This document shows positions 10,158 to 47,503 of a DNA stretch of 64,000 bases, in pieces. Position numbers and translations under genes: made by a program. Source of the DNA: an uncultured candidate division Zixibacteria bacterium (lineage in GTDB: Bacteria > Zixibacteria > MSB-5A5 > UBA10806); NCBI GenBank assembly GCA_963817915.1, contig CAWFQL010000012.1, forward strand, positions 416,001 to 480,000, read 5' to 3'. A model generated the notes under the pieces. That model was given only the letters and a program-made list of their open reading frames with translations, was not told the origin of the DNA and made no database searches. Numbering within the stretch: position 1 is the first letter of the stretch; each line of letters starts with the position of its first letter.

Positions 10158-10475
10158 TTATTCCACTCTGCTAACCTTGGGTTTGATATTCATATTCGGA
10201 GCTACAACCGACCGAATAGCAGGGCTATCGTTGAAGCCGGGATTCGGCGGAGCTAATTGACCCATAGGAGGGCAGCTTGGACAGGGAACTGGCAAATCCC
10301 CTCCCTTGAAGTAGTTTACCATATAGGTTATGTCCAAACCATTAAAGCTGCAACTTCCATTGACATCTCCCGGCGCGTAAAAAGGACGAAGCTGTCCTTC
10401 GCCAGAAACTTCATAGTAAATGCATGCCCCATTTATCTCCATAAATCCGTCAATATATTTCCCGCTATTTTTCAT
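10158..10475 (-). pseudogene. Chimeric remnant: alpha/beta-hydrolase N-terminus fused to a dockerin-like C-terminus
   Basis: INGACIYYEVSGEGQ (hydrolase start) joined directly to GDVNGSCSFNGLDITYMVNYFKGG. Confidence 0.6.
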
Positions 10476-11616: not shown

Positions 11617-12285
11617 TTATCTCGCCGATGGGCAATCCGAGCAAGGCTCGGGCGCAGGGCCACCCTTGAAGTAATTGACTAAATATGTTACGTCGAGGCC
11701 GTTAAATGAGCATGAATTATTCACATCGCCCGCGACAAACCAGCTATTATCGGGAGTGCATTCACACATATAGGGAGGAGGATCGCCTCCCTTGAAGAAA
11801 TTGACAGAGTAGGTGGCGTCGAGACCATTCAACGTACCGCTATTATTTGCATCGCCTACAACATACCTGCAGCTTGCGAAATACGCGGTGTCGGATATTA
11901 CCGATATGGATGTATCACTGAGAACCGAAATCGCTCTAATTGAGAATACTGCCCAATCGCCCGGCGATGATAAAATAACCGAACTGTCGCAGCGGGCATC
12001 AGATGGGGAGACCCCCGTGAGCGAATCACTTACACTAATGATTATATATGACCAAATATACGATTGAACCGTATTTCCATAACCTGGAGGAGACCAGTAA
12101 ATTTTTAGATGCCCATCGCTATCATCATAGCGGGCAAATGCGTTTTCCATAAGGCATAAAAGAGAAATGGCCATGATGATGATCATAAACACTGGTTTCA
12201 GGATTCTGTAAAGTTTCGTATTCTGTTTTTGACTTATCACAACTGGCCAATCAAGAAGATTGTAATTTGCCCTAAGTTTCTGCAT
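11617..12285 (-). CDS. Secreted protein: FN3-like domain lacking strand A plus a dockerin-like double Ca-binding repeat
   Basis: Signal peptide ending AFA; GHLKIYWSPP..YIWSY..GDWAVFSIRAIS; two GD(A/V)NNS..NGLD.TY.VN.FKGG repeats. Start codon uncertain. Confidence 0.75.
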   Translation of the reverse strand: MQKLRANYNLLDWPVVISQKQNTKLYRILKPVFMIIIMAISLLCLMENAFARYDDSDGHLKIYWSPPGYGNTVQSYIWSYIIISVSDSLTGVSPSDARCDSSVILSSPGDWAVFSIRAISVLSDTSISVISDTAYFASCRYVVGDANNSGTLNGLDATYSVNFFKGGDPPPYMCECTPDNSWFVAGDVNNSCSFNGLDVTYLVNYFKGGPAPEPCSDCPSAR

Positions 12286-12586
12286 TTACATTTGCCTTAA
12301 GGCGCTCTTAAGACAATATAAATAGCCAGAATCTACAGTCAATATCATTATGAATATCGGCAGTGACTGGGATTTTAAGAATATGTAAATAGTGCCAGGC
12401 AAGTTCGGGCTCCAAATCACTACGGACAATCGATTTAGATATTGGTGGATAAACGTCAAACATGCAAATCCGTGCGCATTTTATCTCGAATTCGCGAGTA
12501 AATGCCTGCTTTATCTCTTGCGTCTAAATTGAGTTTGATTATATTAGATATCGAATGTCGGCTTCTATTTATTTGAAAGGAGGCAA

Positions 12587-12964
12587 ATGAAATTAACGAT
12601 TGTATTAGCTTTGTTGGTAGTCATTATTGGGCTCACACCGCTAGTAGCGTTGGCACAATTTAATGATCATGACGGACATTTGGTTGTTAGCTGGCAGCCA
12701 CCCGCCTATGGCAACCCACTCGACCATTACATTTGGTCATATACAATTAACGGTGTAGTCGATTCAGTTACCGGGACTTCTGCCGGCGTTGACACGCTAA
12801 ATAACTCCGTAACCTTGACTGCGATAGGCGATTGGGCGGTTTTTCATATTCGTGCAGTTTCTACGGTCAATGATACTTCAACCGTAGCTTATTCTGATAC
12901 CGCCTTCTATAATACGGGAGAAGGAATAGGCCCTCCGAGGGGGGTGACCTGGCAGGGCCCGTAG
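12587..12964 (+). CDS. Small secreted FN3-like protein with C-terminal GIGPPRGVTW strand
   Basis: Strong AAGGAGG RBS; signal peptide ending ALA; paralog of the 11617-12285 domain. Confidence 0.8.
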   Translation: MKLTIVLALLVVIIGLTPLVALAQFNDHDGHLVVSWQPPAYGNPLDHYIWSYTINGVVDSVTGTSAGVDTLNNSVTLTAIGDWAVFHIRAVSTVNDTSTVAYSDTAFYNTGEGIGPPRGVTWQGP

Positions 12965-13221
12965 CCTTTGAGCTGCAGGCTCACCCCAATCCTACCAATA
13001 AATCGGGCCTTGTTTTAAGTTGGCAGGTTGAAAAAGAAAGTATCTATGATATCACGATTTATGATATTTTGGGCCGAAAAATTAAGACACTTCTCAAGCA
13101 GACAATGCCATCGGGTTTCTACAGTCAGCGGGCCGGCGAGGGTCTCGCGGCAGGCATCTATTTCGCTGTTATTTCTCGTCCTGACAATCACAGGGTTGTC
13201 AAGTTCACAGTCATTCGCTGA
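12943..13221 (+). CDS. T9SS type-A-like C-terminal sorting domain in the -1 frame of the 12587 gene, with no start or RBS of its own
   Basis: Translates GDLAGPVAFELQAHPNPTNKSGLVLSWQVEKESIYDITIYDILGRKIKTLLKQTMPSGFYSQRAGEGLAAGIYFAVISRPDNHRVVKFTVIR*; frame open from 12913. Confidence 0.75.
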   Translation, partial: GDLAGPVAFELQAHPNPTNKSGLVLSWQVEKESIYDITIYDILGRKIKTLLKQTMPSGFYSQRAGEGLAAGIYFAVISRPDNHRVVKFTVIR

Positions 13222-13624
13222 TGATGGCATAGCGTTCCCCGATACAGCAAGGGTATCATTTACGAGAACAATCGCAAACGATACTGTCATCATAACATTC
13301 AATAATTTATCCTCCGATTCGGTGAGGAATTTCTTTTTGTCCGATTTTACTGACTCGCAAGTTGTCGAGATTGAATGTCTGGTGGATAATGCTCCATGCG
13401 GTAATCTTGTTGTTGAACGGGAGTTTAATAGTGTTTATGCTGGAAAATTTTCGACCCGCTGGACTATGGGGGGCTTCCTTCATACTGCTTATTTGAAATT
13501 TTTCTCTGAAAGTTATTCGAGTAATGAACTCAGTTGGAGCGCCGGCCATCCTTATGCTATTTTTGGAACGATGTCGACCAATATCGGCATAGGCCCTCCC
13601 CGCGATTTACACTGGGAACAATAG
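13061..13624 (+). CDS. Secreted hypothetical protein ending in GIGPPRDLHWEQ
   Basis: Open frame 13028-13624; hydrophobic signal-like segment ending SQSFA; C-terminal motif shared with the 12587 protein. Start uncertain. Confidence 0.65.
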   Translation: MIFWAEKLRHFSSRQCHRVSTVSGPARVSRQASISLLFLVLTITGLSSSQSFADDGIAFPDTARVSFTRTIANDTVIITFNNLSSDSVRNFFLSDFTDSQVVEIECLVDNAPCGNLVVEREFNSVYAGKFSTRWTMGGFLHTAYLKFFSESYSSNELSWSAGHPYAIFGTMSTNIGIGPPRDLHWEQ

Positions 13625-13635
13625 AGGAAATGGTA

Positions 13636-14979
13636 ATGAAGCATATAGACCGTCGCAAATTTATAGGGGATGTTGGCAAGTTGGCCGGTGGGGCATTAAT
13701 GGGCGGCTATATACTGGATTCAGCGCTATTTTCCGCAGAACGGGCTAATGCAGCTTTAAGAAGCTATATATATTTGGCGAAAAACGGAACACCCGCCCAG
13801 AACGTTGCCAAGGTTTTCGAGATGCGTTTTGGAGGGATTGAAAATTTCATTGGGGCTGATGATGTAGTTGTTATCAATCCGAATGGGCAATGGCCAAATC
13901 AAGGCGGATCCAACTGTGCCTGTTGCATGGGGCTAATAGATCTTATTCTTGATCGGCCCGGCGGATTTAATGGCGAAATTATTTTTACCGAAAATACGCA
14001 GGGCTCGACTACTGGTTATTGGACCGCTTCCGGTGGCGAATTGCTTAGGAATGGACCATATAATTTCAATGACATGATCACTCATTATCACAATAATAGC
14101 CATCTGAATGTAAGCGGAGTACGGATAAGGAATAATCAATATGATGCCGCAAATTGGCCGATAATCAATGGCCCCGCCCAAGGGCAAGGATGGATCAGGC
14201 CGGAGTGGCAATCACAGACATATAGTTGCCTTTTTTACTTGCCATATCCTATTATTCGATCCCCCTACTCTAATAAGCTCATCGATTTGAAGAACGGCAT
14301 TTATGACAATGGCTATGATGGACAACCAGGTTTGAAATTTATAAAAATGCCAAATTTAAATAACCATGGCTATAATGGAAACCAGGACTATGCAGGTGTC
14401 ACAAGCGCAATCAAATCCTTTCTGGGGATAACTGAATTAGAGAATGGCACTGGCTCTTATTTCAATGATGGTGTTCATGCCAATATGCATGCCTATCACG
14501 CCAACGGCTGTTCCGGCAACGAACCTCAAAAGGCATTTTTGGCTGGAGAGGCGATCGGCGCTTGGATGAATCATTGCCGAAAACCCGATCTATTCTTAAC
14601 TACAGCCGAATGGGTAGGATGGGAATCTAGGACCGGTTCGGGCGCCAGTCAAGTTCGTACGGTTGGAATTGCCGAAGATCCTGTTTCTCTGGATTATTTT
14701 ATGAGTAAATATGTGTTATTGCCGAGCCATCCCCAATCACAATACTTTGATCCAGGCTTTGATATCTCGAACAATACGACCAGGCAGACACTCAATGGAT
14801 GTAATTCAATGGGGTACGGGACTGTGAATGAACAGGAAATGGCGGCGTATGTATACGATTTCAATTCGCCTTCAACATTCCGATTTGATATAGACCGAAT
14901 GATTAGAAAATTCAAATCTGGTGAAGCCACCCAACAGGACGTTTTGAATTTAATTGAAATGTATAATTCCGGTAATTAA
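13636..14979 (+). CDS. Tat-exported DUF362-like protein
   Basis: DRRKFIG twin-arginine signal; DDVVVINPNGQW, IKMPNLNNH..AGVTSAIKSFLG, DPVSLDY. Confidence 0.7.
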   Translation: MKHIDRRKFIGDVGKLAGGALMGGYILDSALFSAERANAALRSYIYLAKNGTPAQNVAKVFEMRFGGIENFIGADDVVVINPNGQWPNQGGSNCACCMGLIDLILDRPGGFNGEIIFTENTQGSTTGYWTASGGELLRNGPYNFNDMITHYHNNSHLNVSGVRIRNNQYDAANWPIINGPAQGQGWIRPEWQSQTYSCLFYLPYPIIRSPYSNKLIDLKNGIYDNGYDGQPGLKFIKMPNLNNHGYNGNQDYAGVTSAIKSFLGITELENGTGSYFNDGVHANMHAYHANGCSGNEPQKAFLAGEAIGAWMNHCRKPDLFLTTAEWVGWESRTGSGASQVRTVGIAEDPVSLDYFMSKYVLLPSHPQSQYFDPGFDISNNTTRQTLNGCNSMGYGTVNEQEMAAYVYDFNSPSTFRFDIDRMIRKFKSGEATQQDVLNLIEMYNSGN

Positions 14980-16059: not shown

Positions 16060-19000
16060 TCAACGAATGACTACTATTTTCCCTTGCGTAGTGCCGCCGC
16101 CGTAATCCACAACGTAAAGGTACACGCCAGAAGCCAGTTGGCGGCCCTTATCATTTCTGACATCCCAGACCCATTCCAATGGACCGATATCCGCAACGTT
16201 TCTGACCACATCGCCTGAGACAGTGGCGATGGTAATTTTTGATTTTTCGGGTAGATTCGTGAAGGTTATTCCGGGAAGCCCCTCGGACGCGCGGAATGGA
16301 ATCGGGTAAGCGTGAATATCCAGTACGGCTGAGAATGCTATTGGAGCAGTCCATAGCATGTTGTCGGAGCTTGCCCTCCAATAAAACGAACCATTTTTAT
16401 CAAGAGGATTCGTTGGTCGCCAAGAAATCGGCGATATGCCATCGGCGAAAATAGGGCCCGATTGAATCGGCGATGAAAAATCAATACTACTATCGACTTC
16501 AAAATAAACGATTGCCAAACCAGAGATATACCTGACCGTGAACGTCGGTCTATTAGACACAATTTGAGCGCCGGCAATAGGAGCTATACAATCGGCGCTT
16601 GTTAACGGCTGATTTATATCTGTTGTCATTAAATTGAAGCTTATGACCGGCGACCAGCCGCTGGAATCGGGGCCATCGTTCGATTTTGCCCGGCATTTCC
16701 AGTAGTAGGTAGTTCTCTGTGAGAGGCTGTCAAAAATAAAATCGGCGACTGTATCGGCAGATAATTCCTGCTCCAATCGAGGATTGGGGAAACTATATAC
16801 AGAATCCAATGCGAATTCGTAGAAGATATTCCTATATGATTCTACCAACGAGGCAACTACTGTCGCCGCATGAGCGGTAGTATCTATTAATGTTCTAATT
16901 TGCTCCGGCACTATTATTCCGCTCGAAAACGTATCTATAACAGCCTCAGGCGAGGCGTTGCCGACCTCATCGTAAGCCCGGATCGCGACAAAATATCTTT
17001 CACCCGGTGTCAAGCCATCTACAATACATACTTGCGGTGAATCAGCGGGTGCGGGTGCCGGTATTGATCCATTAAAGAACGACGCCATATTCCAATCAAA
17101 TGCGCTGCCGGTATCTGGCATATATTTTATTAAATAAGCGGTTGCTGTTCCGGACGTACTGTCATCTCCCGGAGCATTCCAATGTAACTCGATTGACCCA
17201 TGGCCATTGTATGGTTGGCCACGATAATTTGATGGCGCTGAAGGCGCTGTTGTATCCTGACCCGCCTCGGTTCCATATATTTCCATCTCGGTAAGCCAGA
17301 TAACCGTGGGATAAGAAGTTGGTCCCATATTGGGAGTTTGATAATATCTGATGCGACTCGTTACTCTTGGTTCGAACCAGGTAGTCGAAGTGCTGTCGAC
17401 AACCGAATTATTGACCGTATCAATATCCGCGAAAGCCCCGGTGGTTTCATTCCAATATTGTATCCTATACTGTCTCGAACACATCCAATAAGAGCTGTTC
17501 CAGGCCCAGTATATTTTCAAGCCCATAACTGAAACTCGTCGACCAAAATTAAATTGCACCCAATGCGGCAGCAAAGCGCTTTCGGCCGATGCCCAAGTAG
17601 TGAGAGTGCCGCCGCGGGGATTAACAACTGAATCGTTAATGCGAGCAATTGAATATCCGGCATATGAGCTATCAACTGTGGGCGTGATGCCTATGGCTAA
17701 ATCCGTATAAGCAACCGACGTATCCGTATGGAATTGATAATCGATACTTACCGCTTCATTATTTGATGCATCTTTGGAGCGAACTCGGAAATGATAGATC
17801 GTATCCGCAATAAGCCCGCTAAGATTCACCGAATGGCTCAACGTCAGCGAGGGGTTGAGGGCAGTCGTTGAATCATATCCGGTGGTCAAGCCGTAATTAA
17901 CCTGACTTGTAGCCAATTCATTTGTATTCCAATTGATTGTTGCGGCATGATCTGTGATATTGCCGGAGCCAACATTACTCAATGTCGGAGGAGTTGTATC
18001 CGGTAATGCGATATAATTCTGCCCCGAGCTATTGGAATTCACTCCGCTATAGCTTCTTGACGCCGGCGAAAATGTGTAGCCATTCAAAACAGGTGTAGCG
18101 GTACCCGACCAGTTGGAATCTATGGTTGCTGTATAGTTGCCGCTGCCATTTGTTGTGGGATTTCCGGGCAAGCCATTTATAGCCACTCCCGCCAAACCGT
18201 TGCCCGCGAGTGTAACCGTGCCCGAAATTGTGTAAGTAACCAGATTCGGCGCCAGGGCACCCATATAAGTCGGATAAGCCCCACCGCGCCCTCCGGTTTT
18301 GACCGCTGACGGCGACCCGGCCGTTAGGTGAAAATCGTGATTGACAGGATCTGCGAAGAGGGGATTGACGTTGACCGAGTTGCTATCATAGTGAATATTG
18401 GCAATGAAATTTGGCAAATTATAAGCCGTGCCGTTCCAAGAAGCAAAATTACTTGAGCCCGAATTCCAATAGCAGTTAAAATTTCCATATAGATTTTGAA
18501 CTATTCGGGCGGTGGGTTTCGTAAATCCATAGGAGGATTGTAAGACAATATTATTGAATATCTGCGGGGTTATTAATGGCTCGTCCTCGCCAGCGGCATA
18601 ACGAGAATATATTCCATTTCCCACATTGTAAATTGTATTATTATATACCGAATTCCCGATATTAGTGTATTGCGGTCTAGTGCCGTGGTTAAGCGTCCCA
18701 GGTTCTAGGTTAATGCCGTCTCCACAATTGTAAATGATGTTATTGCGAATTGTATTGCTATCGCAATCATAAAAGGCGGTGATACCCCTCGCCCCTATAT
18801 CATGTATTATATTATTACTGATTGTATTGTGGCTGTTTGTTTGTTTTAGGAAAATCCCACCATCGCAAGATCCGCCCGGTTCGTTGAAAACAAAATTGCC
18901 TGTAATCGTGGAATTTCGCAAATAATAGAAAAGCATACCGGCATGATTTACCCAAGTGCTATCAAATGTCTCATAATTGGCAAAGGAACTGCAAGCTTGA

Positions 19001-19566
19001 ATCGTCCAATAATCTTTATATTCTTCTAATCCAAGCAGGATAATACCGCCGTTGTTAGAGTCCCGGCTAACTCCACCCGTTGAATCAATGACACAATTCT
19101 TGATGGTAATATAGCTTGATATGCCCCAGCTTGCTATTCCTCTGGAAGTTTTCTTCTGCACTAAAGAATCAAACACGATGTCATGGATATAGTGATTAAA
19201 AATAAGAATACCATAACTACTATAATCTGCACCGACCGTTGTAATGATTGGTCTCGGATACGCCGAATGAGCTTTGTAGACAATGGGATGACCCGGTGTT
19301 CCGCTATTAATGGGAACAAGCGTTCCGTGCGCTCCGCTTTCGCCCCAACCCGGCGTAGCATGAGATTCTCTCCACGTTCCACCCATGATTAGCAATGTAT
19401 CGTTAGCCACGAGGGTGCTACAGGCATGACCTAATGTTAACCACTCATGTGTAGTGTCAATACCGGAATAGCTATTATTGCCATGGTTGCTCACGTAATA
19501 TGTACCGCCGTAAGCTAAGCCTGGAATTAGAATCAACATCATTATTATAGAAAGTCTGCGAATCAT
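16060..19566 (-). CDS. Large secreted/surface protein: right-handed beta-helix, Ig-like, FN3, discoidin-like and FN3 domains, T9SS-type C-terminal domain
   Basis: Signal peptide; TYYVS..GNN, NNII/NNTI repeats, DFHL; DTTPP FN3 repeats; AYPIPF..LASGVYLY..KIVVIR end; GGAGG RBS before ATG 19566. Confidence 0.85.
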   Translation of the reverse strand: MIRRLSIIMMLILIPGLAYGGTYYVSNHGNNSYSGIDTTHEWLTLGHACSTLVANDTLLIMGGTWRESHATPGWGESGAHGTLVPINSGTPGHPIVYKAHSAYPRPIITTVGADYSSYGILIFNHYIHDIVFDSLVQKKTSRGIASWGISSYITIKNCVIDSTGGVSRDSNNGGIILLGLEEYKDYWTIQACSSFANYETFDSTWVNHAGMLFYYLRNSTITGNFVFNEPGGSCDGGIFLKQTNSHNTISNNIIHDIGARGITAFYDCDSNTIRNNIIYNCGDGINLEPGTLNHGTRPQYTNIGNSVYNNTIYNVGNGIYSRYAAGEDEPLITPQIFNNIVLQSSYGFTKPTARIVQNLYGNFNCYWNSGSSNFASWNGTAYNLPNFIANIHYDSNSVNVNPLFADPVNHDFHLTAGSPSAVKTGGRGGAYPTYMGALAPNLVTYTISGTVTLAGNGLAGVAINGLPGNPTTNGSGNYTATIDSNWSGTATPVLNGYTFSPASRSYSGVNSNSSGQNYIALPDTTPPTLSNVGSGNITDHAATINWNTNELATSQVNYGLTTGYDSTTALNPSLTLSHSVNLSGLIADTIYHFRVRSKDASNNEAVSIDYQFHTDTSVAYTDLAIGITPTVDSSYAGYSIARINDSVVNPRGGTLTTWASAESALLPHWVQFNFGRRVSVMGLKIYWAWNSSYWMCSRQYRIQYWNETTGAFADIDTVNNSVVDSTSTTWFEPRVTSRIRYYQTPNMGPTSYPTVIWLTEMEIYGTEAGQDTTAPSAPSNYRGQPYNGHGSIELHWNAPGDDSTSGTATAYLIKYMPDTGSAFDWNMASFFNGSIPAPAPADSPQVCIVDGLTPGERYFVAIRAYDEVGNASPEAVIDTFSSGIIVPEQIRTLIDTTAHAATVVASLVESYRNIFYEFALDSVYSFPNPRLEQELSADTVADFIFDSLSQRTTYYWKCRAKSNDGPDSSGWSPVISFNLMTTDINQPLTSADCIAPIAGAQIVSNRPTFTVRYISGLAIVYFEVDSSIDFSSPIQSGPIFADGISPISWRPTNPLDKNGSFYWRASSDNMLWTAPIAFSAVLDIHAYPIPFRASEGLPGITFTNLPEKSKITIATVSGDVVRNVADIGPLEWVWDVRNDKGRQLASGVYLYVVDYGGGTTQGKIVVIR

Positions 19567-19622
19567 GGTTGTGCCTCCATCTTTCATATCGAAAATCTAC
19601 TATATCTTATATCGTCTATAAA

Positions 19623-46387: not shown

Positions 46388-47503
46388 ATGAATAGATTTC
46401 TTTCATTCGCTTTAATAATCAGCCTTGTCATATTGGGAGCCAATCTCGGAGTTGCCGGCAATTTTTCGAATATCATGATGCTCCACCATTCTACCGGAAA
46501 TAATTTAATTAATCAAGGTGGAGTGCGTAGCCTGATCGCGGCCTACAACACCGCGCATGGCACAAACCTCGAGTTTTGGGACCACGGCTATAATGCAGAT
46601 GGCGTGCACAATCAGAGCGGTAGTTATTTTGCCAATTACAATATTCCCAATGATAATACCAACCCAGACGGTTTGTATGCATTGTTTATGTTGCCAATTA
46701 ATAATCCTCCTGATAATGCATTAAGCCGATTTCTCCTTGCGCATCCAATGGGGGTCGACACCGTTACCCATGATGTGTTTATTTTCAAATCCTGTTTTCC
46801 AGCCAGCGATATTTCGAGCGAGCAAATGCTGACTGATTACCAAAATTGGTATTTGGCTATGCGCACTATTATGGATGCCCATCCCGAGAAGATCTTTATC
46901 CCGTTTACTCCGCCGCCATTGGTCAGGAGCGCTACGACAACCGCAAATGCCGCACGCGCCCAGCGATTCGCCGATTGGCTGACGTCTTCGACGTACCTAT
47001 CCGGCCATCCCAATATTATTGTCTTTGATTTCAGACATTATTTAATGGAACATGACTCGACTTCAATTTATTACAATTGCCTGCGCGAAGTTTATGGTGG
47101 AGCTGGAAGCGATTCTCATCCCAATTTATTGGCCAATCAAACGGTTGCTCCGATATTTGTGACCTTTCTGACTGACGCAATCACTGCTTATCAGAATCTT
47201 CAGGGCCTTGACCCCGAAGATATTGGTTTGAGCATTCCGGGAAAATTGAGTATTCTGGGGAATTATCCTAACCCCTTTAATTCGTCTACCATAATTGAAT
47301 ACAGTCTGTCATCGGCAGGCGAAGTTACAATTGATATTTTTGATATTTTGGGGCGGAATTTAAAAAGCGTTCCAATCGGACTGCGGGAAGCGGGCCGATA
47401 TTCCTATAATTGGCAGGCCAATGGTTTGTCTTCGGGCACCTACATATTTAGGATAGGCGCCAATAATTCATTTGTCTCAAAAAAGATACTATATTTGAAA
47501 TAA
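46388..47503 (+). CDS. Secreted SGNH-like protein with T9SS-type C-terminal sorting domain
   Basis: Signal peptide; LHHSTG, FKSCFP, DSHPN; NYPNPFNSST..DILGR..SSGTYIF. Confidence 0.8.
   Translation: MNRFLSFALIISLVILGANLGVAGNFSNIMMLHHSTGNNLINQGGVRSLIAAYNTAHGTNLEFWDHGYNADGVHNQSGSYFANYNIPNDNTNPDGLYALFMLPINNPPDNALSRFLLAHPMGVDTVTHDVFIFKSCFPASDISSEQMLTDYQNWYLAMRTIMDAHPEKIFIPFTPPPLVRSATTTANAARAQRFADWLTSSTYLSGHPNIIVFDFRHYLMEHDSTSIYYNCLREVYGGAGSDSHPNLLANQTVAPIFVTFLTDAITAYQNLQGLDPEDIGLSIPGKLSILGNYPNPFNSSTIIEYSLSSAGEVTIDIFDILGRNLKSVPIGLREAGRYSYNWQANGLSSGTYIFRIGANNSFVSKKILYLK

Follow-up and report, generated by a model that had tools for sequence, protein, structure and literature searches.

Programmed frameshifts encoded on bacterial chromosomes are few, and most of them are found in dnaX, prfB, insertion sequence (IS) elements, and prophage tail genes. 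Here, we describe a candidate addition, gene A, from a 64,000-nucleotide stretch of DNA of an uncultured candidate division Zixibacteria bacterium (GenBank assembly GCA_963817915.1, contig CAWFQL010000012.1, positions 416,001 to 480,000), which we call the window. Like the familiar bacterial and phage -1 frameshifts (dnaX tau/gamma, the G/GT tail chaperones, and the IS transposases), gene A would yield nested products with a common N-terminus, and it has a downstream frame without a start codon, structured RNA around the putative site, and a layout conserved across species. It differs from them in that a conserved X XXY YYZ heptamer is missing, and in that the shift would add a secretion and sorting domain, changing the location of the protein rather than the function of an enzyme or chaperone.

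A second point of comparison is the translational bypass of phage T4 gene 60. As described in PMC5462505, the T4 take-off site holds a 12-nt A-site hairpin of three C-G pairs and a UUCG loop, which contains the stop codon and hinders RF1; a preprint describes a conserved CC-UUCG-GG tip, and UUUG loops as well (bioRxiv 10.1101/2022.08.31.505936). Gene A and its relatives resemble this arrangement in that the UAG stands directly 3' of the last sense codon, where a CC-UUCG-GG hairpin has its 5' foot, and in that a longer stem has the presumed take-off codon on its 5' side. The two differ in the move itself, which for gene A would be one base back as opposed to a 50-nt forward hop in T4, and in the tRNA, which is Pro here and Gly in T4. 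In addition, an AU-rich gap and a mini-Shine-Dalgarno (SD) were not found here, the hairpin of the window is weaker (UUUG loop, C-A mismatch), and gene A is a chromosomal gene of an uncultured bacterium, whereas the T4 element is a phage mobile cassette.

The two reading frames in question are the following.

12587 to 12964, forward strand: gene A, 0 frame, 125 amino acids (aa), with a signal peptide (about residues 1-23), an FN3-like domain without strand A, the tail GIGPPRGVTWQGP, and the stop codon TAG at 12962-12964.
12913 to 13221, forward strand: -1 frame open reading frame (ORF), startless, with a type IX secretion system (T9SS) type A C-terminal sorting domain (hidden Markov model match from about 12982 to 13218) and the stop codon TGA at 13219-13221.

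They overlap over 12913-12964. We consider it likely that gene A is read in two ways, through a programmed and conserved -1 recoding event that ribosomes undergo somewhere in its last 12 codons (12929-12964); that ribosomes shift, where and how often they do so, and which roles the products play is what we infer from the comparisons that follow.

In the 0 frame, the protein ends in ...GEGIGPPRGVTWQGP at the TAG, and its match to Pfam fn3 is weak (16.9 bits, under the gathering score). The -1 frame reads ...PSEGGDLAGPVAFELQAHPNP...GIYFAVISRPDNHRVVKFTVIR before its stop, and is also given as ...PSEGGDLAGPVAFELQAHPNPTNKSGLVLSWQVEKESIYDITIYDILGRKIKTLL...GIYFAVISRPDNHRVVKFTVIR. The initial annotation had seen a hidden T9SS-type sorting domain in this frame, and profile searches agree, with scores of 32.3 bits for TIGR04183 (cut-off 23) and 28.7 bits for Por_Secre_tail, Pfam PF18962 (gathering 27), and a match that stops 3 residues short of the terminator. 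The two proteins to which it had been likened have the same type of domain (TIGR04183 39.7 bits at 46388-47503, and 24.4 bits at the C-terminus of 16060-19587). Gene A is like other T9SS type A cargo (TIGR04183/PF18962) in that the -1 frame passes both cut-offs and PorU and SprA are encoded in the genome; it is unlike such cargo in that the sorting domain is out of frame with its passenger.

The -1 frame was also said to have no start of its own, and indeed no ATG, GTG, or TTG is found in it from the upstream stop to 10 codons beyond the junction in 9/9 distinct loci (the window and eight others). Independent initiation of the sorting-domain ORF is ruled out, as it has neither a start codon nor a signal peptide. 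An altered genetic code or the absence of RF1 is similarly ruled out: TAG is an ordinary stop in the window's genome, where it terminates 378 of 1432 long ORFs, and RF1 is encoded there. Since the -1 frame is startless, a sorting domain without a signal would be useless, TAG is an ordinary stop, and RF1 is present, the domain would be reached from gene A through a change of frame.

The layout recurs widely. A protein collection search with gene A gave 33 proteins at E ≤ 0.001 among 45 candidates, and the source record of one homologue names candidate division Zixibacteria. All but two of the 32 non-self homologues are 109-140 aa long and terminate at the same aligned place, ...GIGPPxGVxW(I)QGP, with GP as the last residues in 28 of these 30, GQ in 1, and QD in 1; the other two (P0032 and P0033) are in-frame fusions of the FN3-like domain to the sorting domain, without the tail. 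Among 285 genomes of the phylum there are 12 gene A matches, namely five short forms (including that of the window's genome), six in-frame FN3-sorting-domain proteins, and one dockerin-type paralogue, and a metagenome scan added seven loci, six of them short forms. The five short-form genomes span at least three families of one class. A DNA search of the 285 genomes for copies of the gene A cassette returned the same five genomes and one 30-nt partial match only, and a covariance model of the element, run against 151 sampled genomes of the class, found only four training loci, one per genome.

For 11 short-form loci DNA could be compared (nine distinct sequences). The TAG and a complete -1-frame sorting domain are kept in 11/11, and the -1 ORFs of the other distinct loci all pass TIGR04183 (8/8, 29.1-35.9 bits, cut-off 23). 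The in-frame relatives (L007, L008, and L010-L013) carry the sorting domain joined to the passenger and have no tail (6/6); in gene A, joining the two needs a frame shift, and the tailed gene is frame-shifted in 11/11 loci. Whether homologous loci retain both the 0-frame stop and the -1-frame domain had been proposed as a check, and these counts, together with the common end point of 30/32 protein homologues, bear out the earlier suggestion that both endings are functional and the layout programmed.

Over 28 pairs of sequences, pS is 0.72-0.82, which puts synonymous divergence near saturation, and the median pN/pS is 0.25 for gene A and 0.40 for the -1 domain (maximum 0.65). By these ratios both frames are under purifying selection, and we read the layout as programmed and not as an assembly error.

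Codon usage at the junction is constrained as well. Among same-residue pairs the identical-codon fraction is 0.69 in the A tail (276/401) and 0.725 in the sorting-domain head (319/440), and it is 0.40 in the body of A (782/1956) and 0.48 in the rest of the domain (630/1311). The genome uses CCT least among its Pro codons and GGG least among its Gly codons (8.7 and 11.2 per 1000, respectively), yet both are invariant in the A tail of the DNA loci; as a control, the Gly-Pro-Pro motif of protein B, the product of the next gene, uses freely varying codons (12 loci). Around 13005-13009 the synonymous sites of the xCG GGC codons are invariant in 9/9 loci while the amino acid varies (S/T/A). Folding the nine distinct sequences with RNAalifold gave a nested consensus of 23 pairs, with these elements.

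12929 to 12933 with 13005 to 13009, forward strand: P0, outer helix, GGCCC with GGGCC (RNAalifold).
12939 to 12944, forward strand: G6 run, the length of which varies from G4 to G6 among loci.
12941 to 12950, forward strand: P1 5' arm, GGGGUGACCU, including four G of the run (RNAalifold and pair counts).
12978 to 12987, forward strand: P1 3' arm, GGCUCACCCC, the codons of (A)HP in the HPNP motif in the sorting-domain frame.
12961 to 12976, forward strand: P2 hairpin (G UAGCC UUUG AGCUG C), arms 12961-12966 and 12971-12976, with the UAG at its 5' foot.
13005 to 13009, forward strand: GGGCC, 3' arm of P0, which with C13004 has an alternative pairing with GGCCCG at 12956-12961.

In the consensus of P1, GGGGUGAaCU pairs with aGGUuCACCCC to form a 10-bp stem that encloses the stop codon, with a C-C mismatch in the window, L003, and L006. 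P2 reads UAGCC-UUCG-GGCUG in other loci; its tip is CC-UUCG-GG in 3/9, CU-UUCG-AG in 3/9, and has other UUNN loops in 3/9. Counting pairs, 96.6% of cells are paired, a share that drops to 27-56% if the partners are shifted by 1-3 columns, and 0/500 shuffles match the observed pairing score, a figure that is not a probability, as the lineages are related. Both sides have changed at three pairs: in P1, G-C to A-U (L003) and A-U to G-C (L017), and in P2, C-G to U-A (L005, L015, L019). The L003 change is synonymous in the 0 frame (GTG to GTA) and stands alongside CAC to TAC. Rfam, searched over 12500-13400, gave only a chance-level sroH (14.5 bits vs. gathering 80). Taken at the level of the sequences, RNA-level constraint is present at the junction.

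There are just two invariant slippery tetranucleotides, C CCT (12930-12933) and the C CCR that precedes the TAG (12958-12961), and each lies within a candidate shift site.

12958 to 12964, forward strand: candidate shift site 3, C CCG TAG, at which the P-site tRNA-Pro would slip from CCG to CCC with UAG in the A site.
12929 to 12934, forward strand: candidate shift site 1, GGC CCT, at which tRNA-Pro would slip from CCU to CCC; it lies 6 nt 5' of P1 and overlaps the P0 5' arm.

Most ribosomes would stop at UAG 12962 and yield a Sec-exported FN3-like protein of about 102 residues with the free tail GIGPPRGVTWQGP, and a minority would shift to -1, read VAFELQAHPNP..., and make an FN3-linker-T9SS sorting domain protein. 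Our tentative choice for the shift site, held with somewhat less than even confidence, is the stop itself, C-CCG-UAG. Peptidyl-tRNA-Pro on CCG 12959-12961 would re-pair with CCC 12958-12960 and decoding would resume at GUA, with GVTWQGPVAFELQAHPNPTNK as the predicted junction peptide. Termination would be slowed by the C-terminal Pro and the UAG-C context, both of which are poor contexts for termination, and by the A-site hairpin resembling that of T4 gene 60. GGC CCR TAG is present in 9/9 distinct loci, and the extra terminal Gly-Pro of the A tail occurs in 0/12 B tails. The first strand of the sorting domain, VAFELQAHPNP, starts exactly at the stop and matches AFSIATYPNP and SFEVHAYPNP of in-frame relatives.

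The likeness to T4 is closest in three of the nine loci. The T4 take-off reads GGA TAG CCT TCG GGC TAT C, and L003, L004, and L018 read CC(A/G) TAG CCT TCG GGC TGC A, an identity to the T4 hairpin of 14 nt in L003 and of 13 nt in L004 and L018. Because GCC-UUCG-GGC hairpins are common (13 in the window's genome), the additional identity to T4 comes down to a few flanking bases, and part of the likeness may be chance.

Several observations weigh against recoding, or against the stop as its site. The single-sequence folds are unexceptional for their composition (z -1.14 and -1.44), the covariation amounts to three pairs and five cells, from lineages that are related, and another small hairpin (AAGGC with GCCUU) would also fit; in the window itself, P2 has both a UUUG loop and a C-A mismatch, and P1 the C-C mismatch. 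A canonical X XXY YYZ heptamer is not conserved, with G GGC CCG in 4/9 loci and A GGC CCR in 5/9. Site 3 is not universal, as P0004 (ending in GQ) and P0031 (ending in QD) have no terminal Pro; P0025 and P0030 have no GGG codon. In addition, P1 starts 6 nt past GGC CCT but encloses, and does not follow, C CCG UAG; the invariant T12933 and the 6-nt spacing to P1 suit site 1 better than site 3. A search of public data sets for this DNA gave one weak match, as contigs, of which the single aligned piece spans 12600-12761, with none over 12939-12964, and gave no RNA match.

Site 1 would give a -1 frameshift of classical geometry. On meeting P1, 6 nt downstream, the tRNA-Pro at GGC CCU (12929-12934) would slip from CCU to CCC, and P1 may gain a pseudoknot by pairing of GGCCCG (12956-12961) with CGGGCC (13004-13009). 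The long form would be GIGP-SEGGDLAGPVAF..., without the donor tail and like the ancestral in-frame proteins, and the predicted junction peptide would be GIGPSEGGDLAGPVAF. We regard this as rather unlikely, though it accounts for a good deal. CCT is kept in 9/9 loci although it is the rarest Pro codon, and GGC in 8/9 (AGC in L019); a variable 4-nt stretch followed by an invariant stem makes a slip-spacer-stem pattern; a tRNA-Pro(GGG) is present, which would pair better with CCC than with CCU; and BLAST places the in-frame homologue P0032 (SDGGNPGGQDLPSSFEV) against the -1 reading from SEGGDLAGPVAFEL. A tail-less long form would also give a simple chain stoichiometry. However, N GGC CCU does not make a slippery heptamer, as re-pairing of tRNA-Gly(GCC) on NGG would give one good pair, and the terminal GP that is specific to A, together with the hairpin at whose foot the stop lies, would be left unexplained. 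Moreover, 0-frame synonymous changes (ATC/ATA/ATT, CAA/CAG) alter the -1 residues freely (P/T/S, R/G), so that the overlap is little constrained; from this free variation over 12941-12957, the region would be either untranslated in -1 or a tolerant linker.

The initial annotation had looked to the G run, and its arithmetic was correct in that there is a G6 at 12939-12944 and that one added G or a -1 slip there fuses the frames. Such a switch could work by ribosomal slippage on G GGG, by transcriptional slippage, or by heritable G6/G7 phase variation, and the slip would predict the junction peptide GIGPPRGGDLAGPVAF. Besides the fusion by a single G, it has in its favor that a run of G5-G6 is present in 8/9 distinct loci, and that GGG is the rarest Gly codon, with no tRNA-Gly(CCC) among 45 tRNAs of a genome that is 94% complete. 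Even so, we consider it very unlikely. The run lengths in the nine distinct sequences are G6, G4, G6, G5, G6, G6, G6, G5, and G5; in L003 and L014, the sequence is CGT GGG GTA, a G4 preceded by T, and the layout is still kept; and in P0025 (PRLVNW) and P0030 (PRMVDW), Leu or Met replaces the Gly codon of the run. These counts speak against the run as a slip site, and DNA phase variation is not supported either, an in-frame "ON" state with the tail being found in none of the 11 short-form loci and none of the 30 short homologues. Tracts of 4-6 G are short for slippage by a polymerase or in replication. Phase-variable homopolymer tracts that act by slipped-strand mispairing are alike in having the run at the frame junction, but the run here is short (G4-G6), not conserved, and found in a single state. 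The run is instead, as we read the alignment, structural and not slippery, being the 5' arm of a conserved stem: its conservation is explained by its pairing with CACCCC 35-40 nt downstream, including the compensatory change at the adjacent pair.

A hop as in T4 we find still harder to credit. In translational bypass, the tRNA-Pro would leave CCG 12959-12961 and, after a gap of 23 nt, land on the Pro codon of HPNP, CCC 12985-12987, so that VAFELQAH would stay untranslated, with the predicted junction ...QGPNPTNK. The hairpin is take-off-like and has the stop at its foot, a cognate CCC is available in the required frame 26 nt downstream (with another at -1), and the sorting-domain models start only at (A/V)H-PNP. 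Against this, AFELQAHPNP closely resembles the translated AFSIATYPNP and SFEVHAYPNP of in-frame homologues, codons 2, 3, 5, and 6 of this stretch vary synonymously, and there is neither an AU-rich gap nor a conserved SD-like element ahead of the landing codon.

That the true gene is a plain in-frame fusion hidden by an assembly or homopolymer error, or that the domain is the decaying relic of a dead gene, has as its sole support the first caveat that indel errors occur elsewhere in the window, and is so improbable that we dismiss it, given an identical -1 offset in nine distinct sequences from independent assemblies, a 0-frame tail and stop kept in 30/32 homologues, and an intact domain under purifying selection at saturated pS.

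We return to the proposed recoding event at the stop of gene A, and to the gene that follows it.

13028 to 13624, forward strand: gene B, with the mature protein from 13220 and the tail IGIGPPRDLHWEQ at 13583-13621; the AlphaFold2 (AF2) model has a predicted local distance difference test (pLDDT) score of 87.5.

Protein B ends in GIGPPRDLHWEQ at its C-terminus. A and B are the only two six-frame ORFs of at least 50 aa in the 3.33-Mb genome to end with this type of motif, and the earlier remark that the 0-frame tail of A matches that of B is confirmed by this. The two tails also share the 11-nt ATAGGCCCTCC (12926-12936 and 13583-13600), in this genome only, with B codons differing elsewhere, which hints at a recent exchange between the tails in the window's genome. 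Protein B has no family in Pfam and NCBIfam, and the neighbors of its sandwich in a fold search, namely cohesin-like, pilin, and adhesin sandwiches, were all weak (TM about 0.35).

In each of the 15 loci examined, whether in-frame or frame-shifted, the signal peptide of B is coded for within the 3' end of the sorting domain, in the +1 frame of the latter, and the hydrophobic core and AxA site of the peptide finish just past the sorting-domain TGA. Among loci the start codon of B changes between ATG and TTG and lies anywhere from 19 to about 53 codons upstream of the cleavage site; in the window there is no nearby start, so that B would need the ATG at 13061. In L003 and L014, the place of B downstream of the sorting domain is taken by a gene for a 244-aa protein with the mature N-terminus DIGPPRNVSWI, a protein that has the tail motif at its front, in the place of the normal FN3 strand A.

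In the AF2 model of A (pLDDT 72.5), six strands form a sandwich from which strand A is missing, because the mature N-terminus begins at the loop that precedes FN3 strand B; the tail (105-125) has a pLDDT below 50. With Foldseek, the top matches of A are all FN3 domains (best E 5.5e-3), and none of them reaches E 1e-3. For mature A with B, the complex model scored 0.69, with 0.00 for the best of three controls, a mark that was reached by 116/157 solved complexes and 2/215 mismatched pairs in a calibration that is only rough, as custom alignments were used. Its runs agree in at least 76% of contacts, the partner pLDDT is at least 76, and residues 122-134 of B lie antiparallel to residues 33-37 of A, in the place of FN3 strand A. 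The idea of a donor strand in the initial annotation gains from this, as the model sets the B tail against strand B of the FN3-like domain of A; it supports binding, in which the B tail would supply the missing FN3 strand of A, and does not show it.

The groove of A would accept the tail of B or that of another short A. On that model a short A would polymerise, and a long A would be the unit that is exported and anchored by the T9SS. Such tail-to-groove chaining is suggested because the in-frame relatives are tail-less and the tailed A frame-shifted, without exception in either set, and the ratio of short to long form might set the length of a filament. The donor-strand complementation of chaperone-usher and type V pili is a close parallel: there too an Ig- or FN3-like subunit lacks an edge strand, a neighbor's terminal strand takes this place (here in the model), and a short form with both groove and tail could polymerise. 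In contrast to those pili, the fold here is FN3-like, the missing strand is A, and export would be by the T9SS. Pfam and NCBIfam scans of six nearby proteins showed no chaperone, usher, or lipoprotein pilin signature; no search was aimed at these in the window.

The T9SS machinery itself is encoded in the window's genome, with PorU at 688.1 bits (cut-off 420) and SprA at 741.7 bits summed. About 50 further matches are partial and fall solely within the C-terminal, sorting-domain-like stretch of the PorU model. PorV-like matches stayed under the cut-off; the best of them, G000:C9:137760-138506, is broken by three TGA and one TAA and may be a broken paralogue, and a PorV-like ORF lies directly after PorU on contig C17. 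With ARAGORN, 45 tRNAs were found in this genome (G000). The Gly anticodons are only GCC and UCC and the Val anticodons only CAC and GAC, with CCC (Gly) and UAC (Val) not found, though GGG and GTA codons are used; at 94% completeness, these tRNAs may be unassembled.

Upstream of gene A lies a divergently transcribed paralogue.

11617 to 12285, reverse strand: gene A paralogue, with the same FN3-like domain without strand A, followed by a dockerin-type repeat pair in place of the T9SS domain.

It is 47% identical to A, and its Dockerin_1 score of 21.6 bits is just below gathering (22.9). A 105-aa ORF at 10158-10475 (reverse strand) also has a dockerin-like repeat. From the dockerin repeats and the weak cohesin-like neighbors of B (TM about 0.35), a cohesin-dockerin-style assembly around the locus is possible. 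Downstream of B, 13630-14979 (forward strand) encodes a 447-aa protein with a twin-arginine (Tat) signal (MKHIDRRKFIG...), the frame of which is open for 96 nt upstream into the B tail. It has no family in Pfam and NCBIfam, and was dropped as a member of the module, as it is not next to B in other loci.

Frameshifting itself is a known event; what would be new here is its programmed use to append a T9SS sorting domain, at a stop codon that carries a hairpin like that of gene 60. A full-text search of the literature found nothing on frameshifting with type IX secretion, on frameshifting in Zixibacteria, or on a donor strand with T9SS or FN3. The fullest picture that we can draw is, in a free-living bacterium, of a T4 gene 60-like A-site hairpin at Pro-UAG that leads to a step of one base back and appends the T9SS domain, the efficiency of the step setting the ratio of subunit to anchor and B plugging in, to give a strand-complemented T9SS surface fibre with a ribosome-set length. 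As a whole we hold this picture to be doubtful, and offer it as speculation.

Were it true, recoding would decide whether a protein gains a secretion and sorting domain, and a single gene would supply both a form that is exported to the surface and one that is periplasmic or polymerises. A cellular gene would carry a hairpin nearly identical to the take-off hairpin of T4 gene 60, and would provide a second, independent natural system in which to study ribosomes that are diverted by an A-site hairpin at a stop codon. For the T9SS, it would suggest that cargo can be loaded by strand complementation, as B is without a sorting domain of its own. A strand-complemented, T9SS-dependent surface fibre would be of a previously unknown type, and its length would be set by the ribosome.

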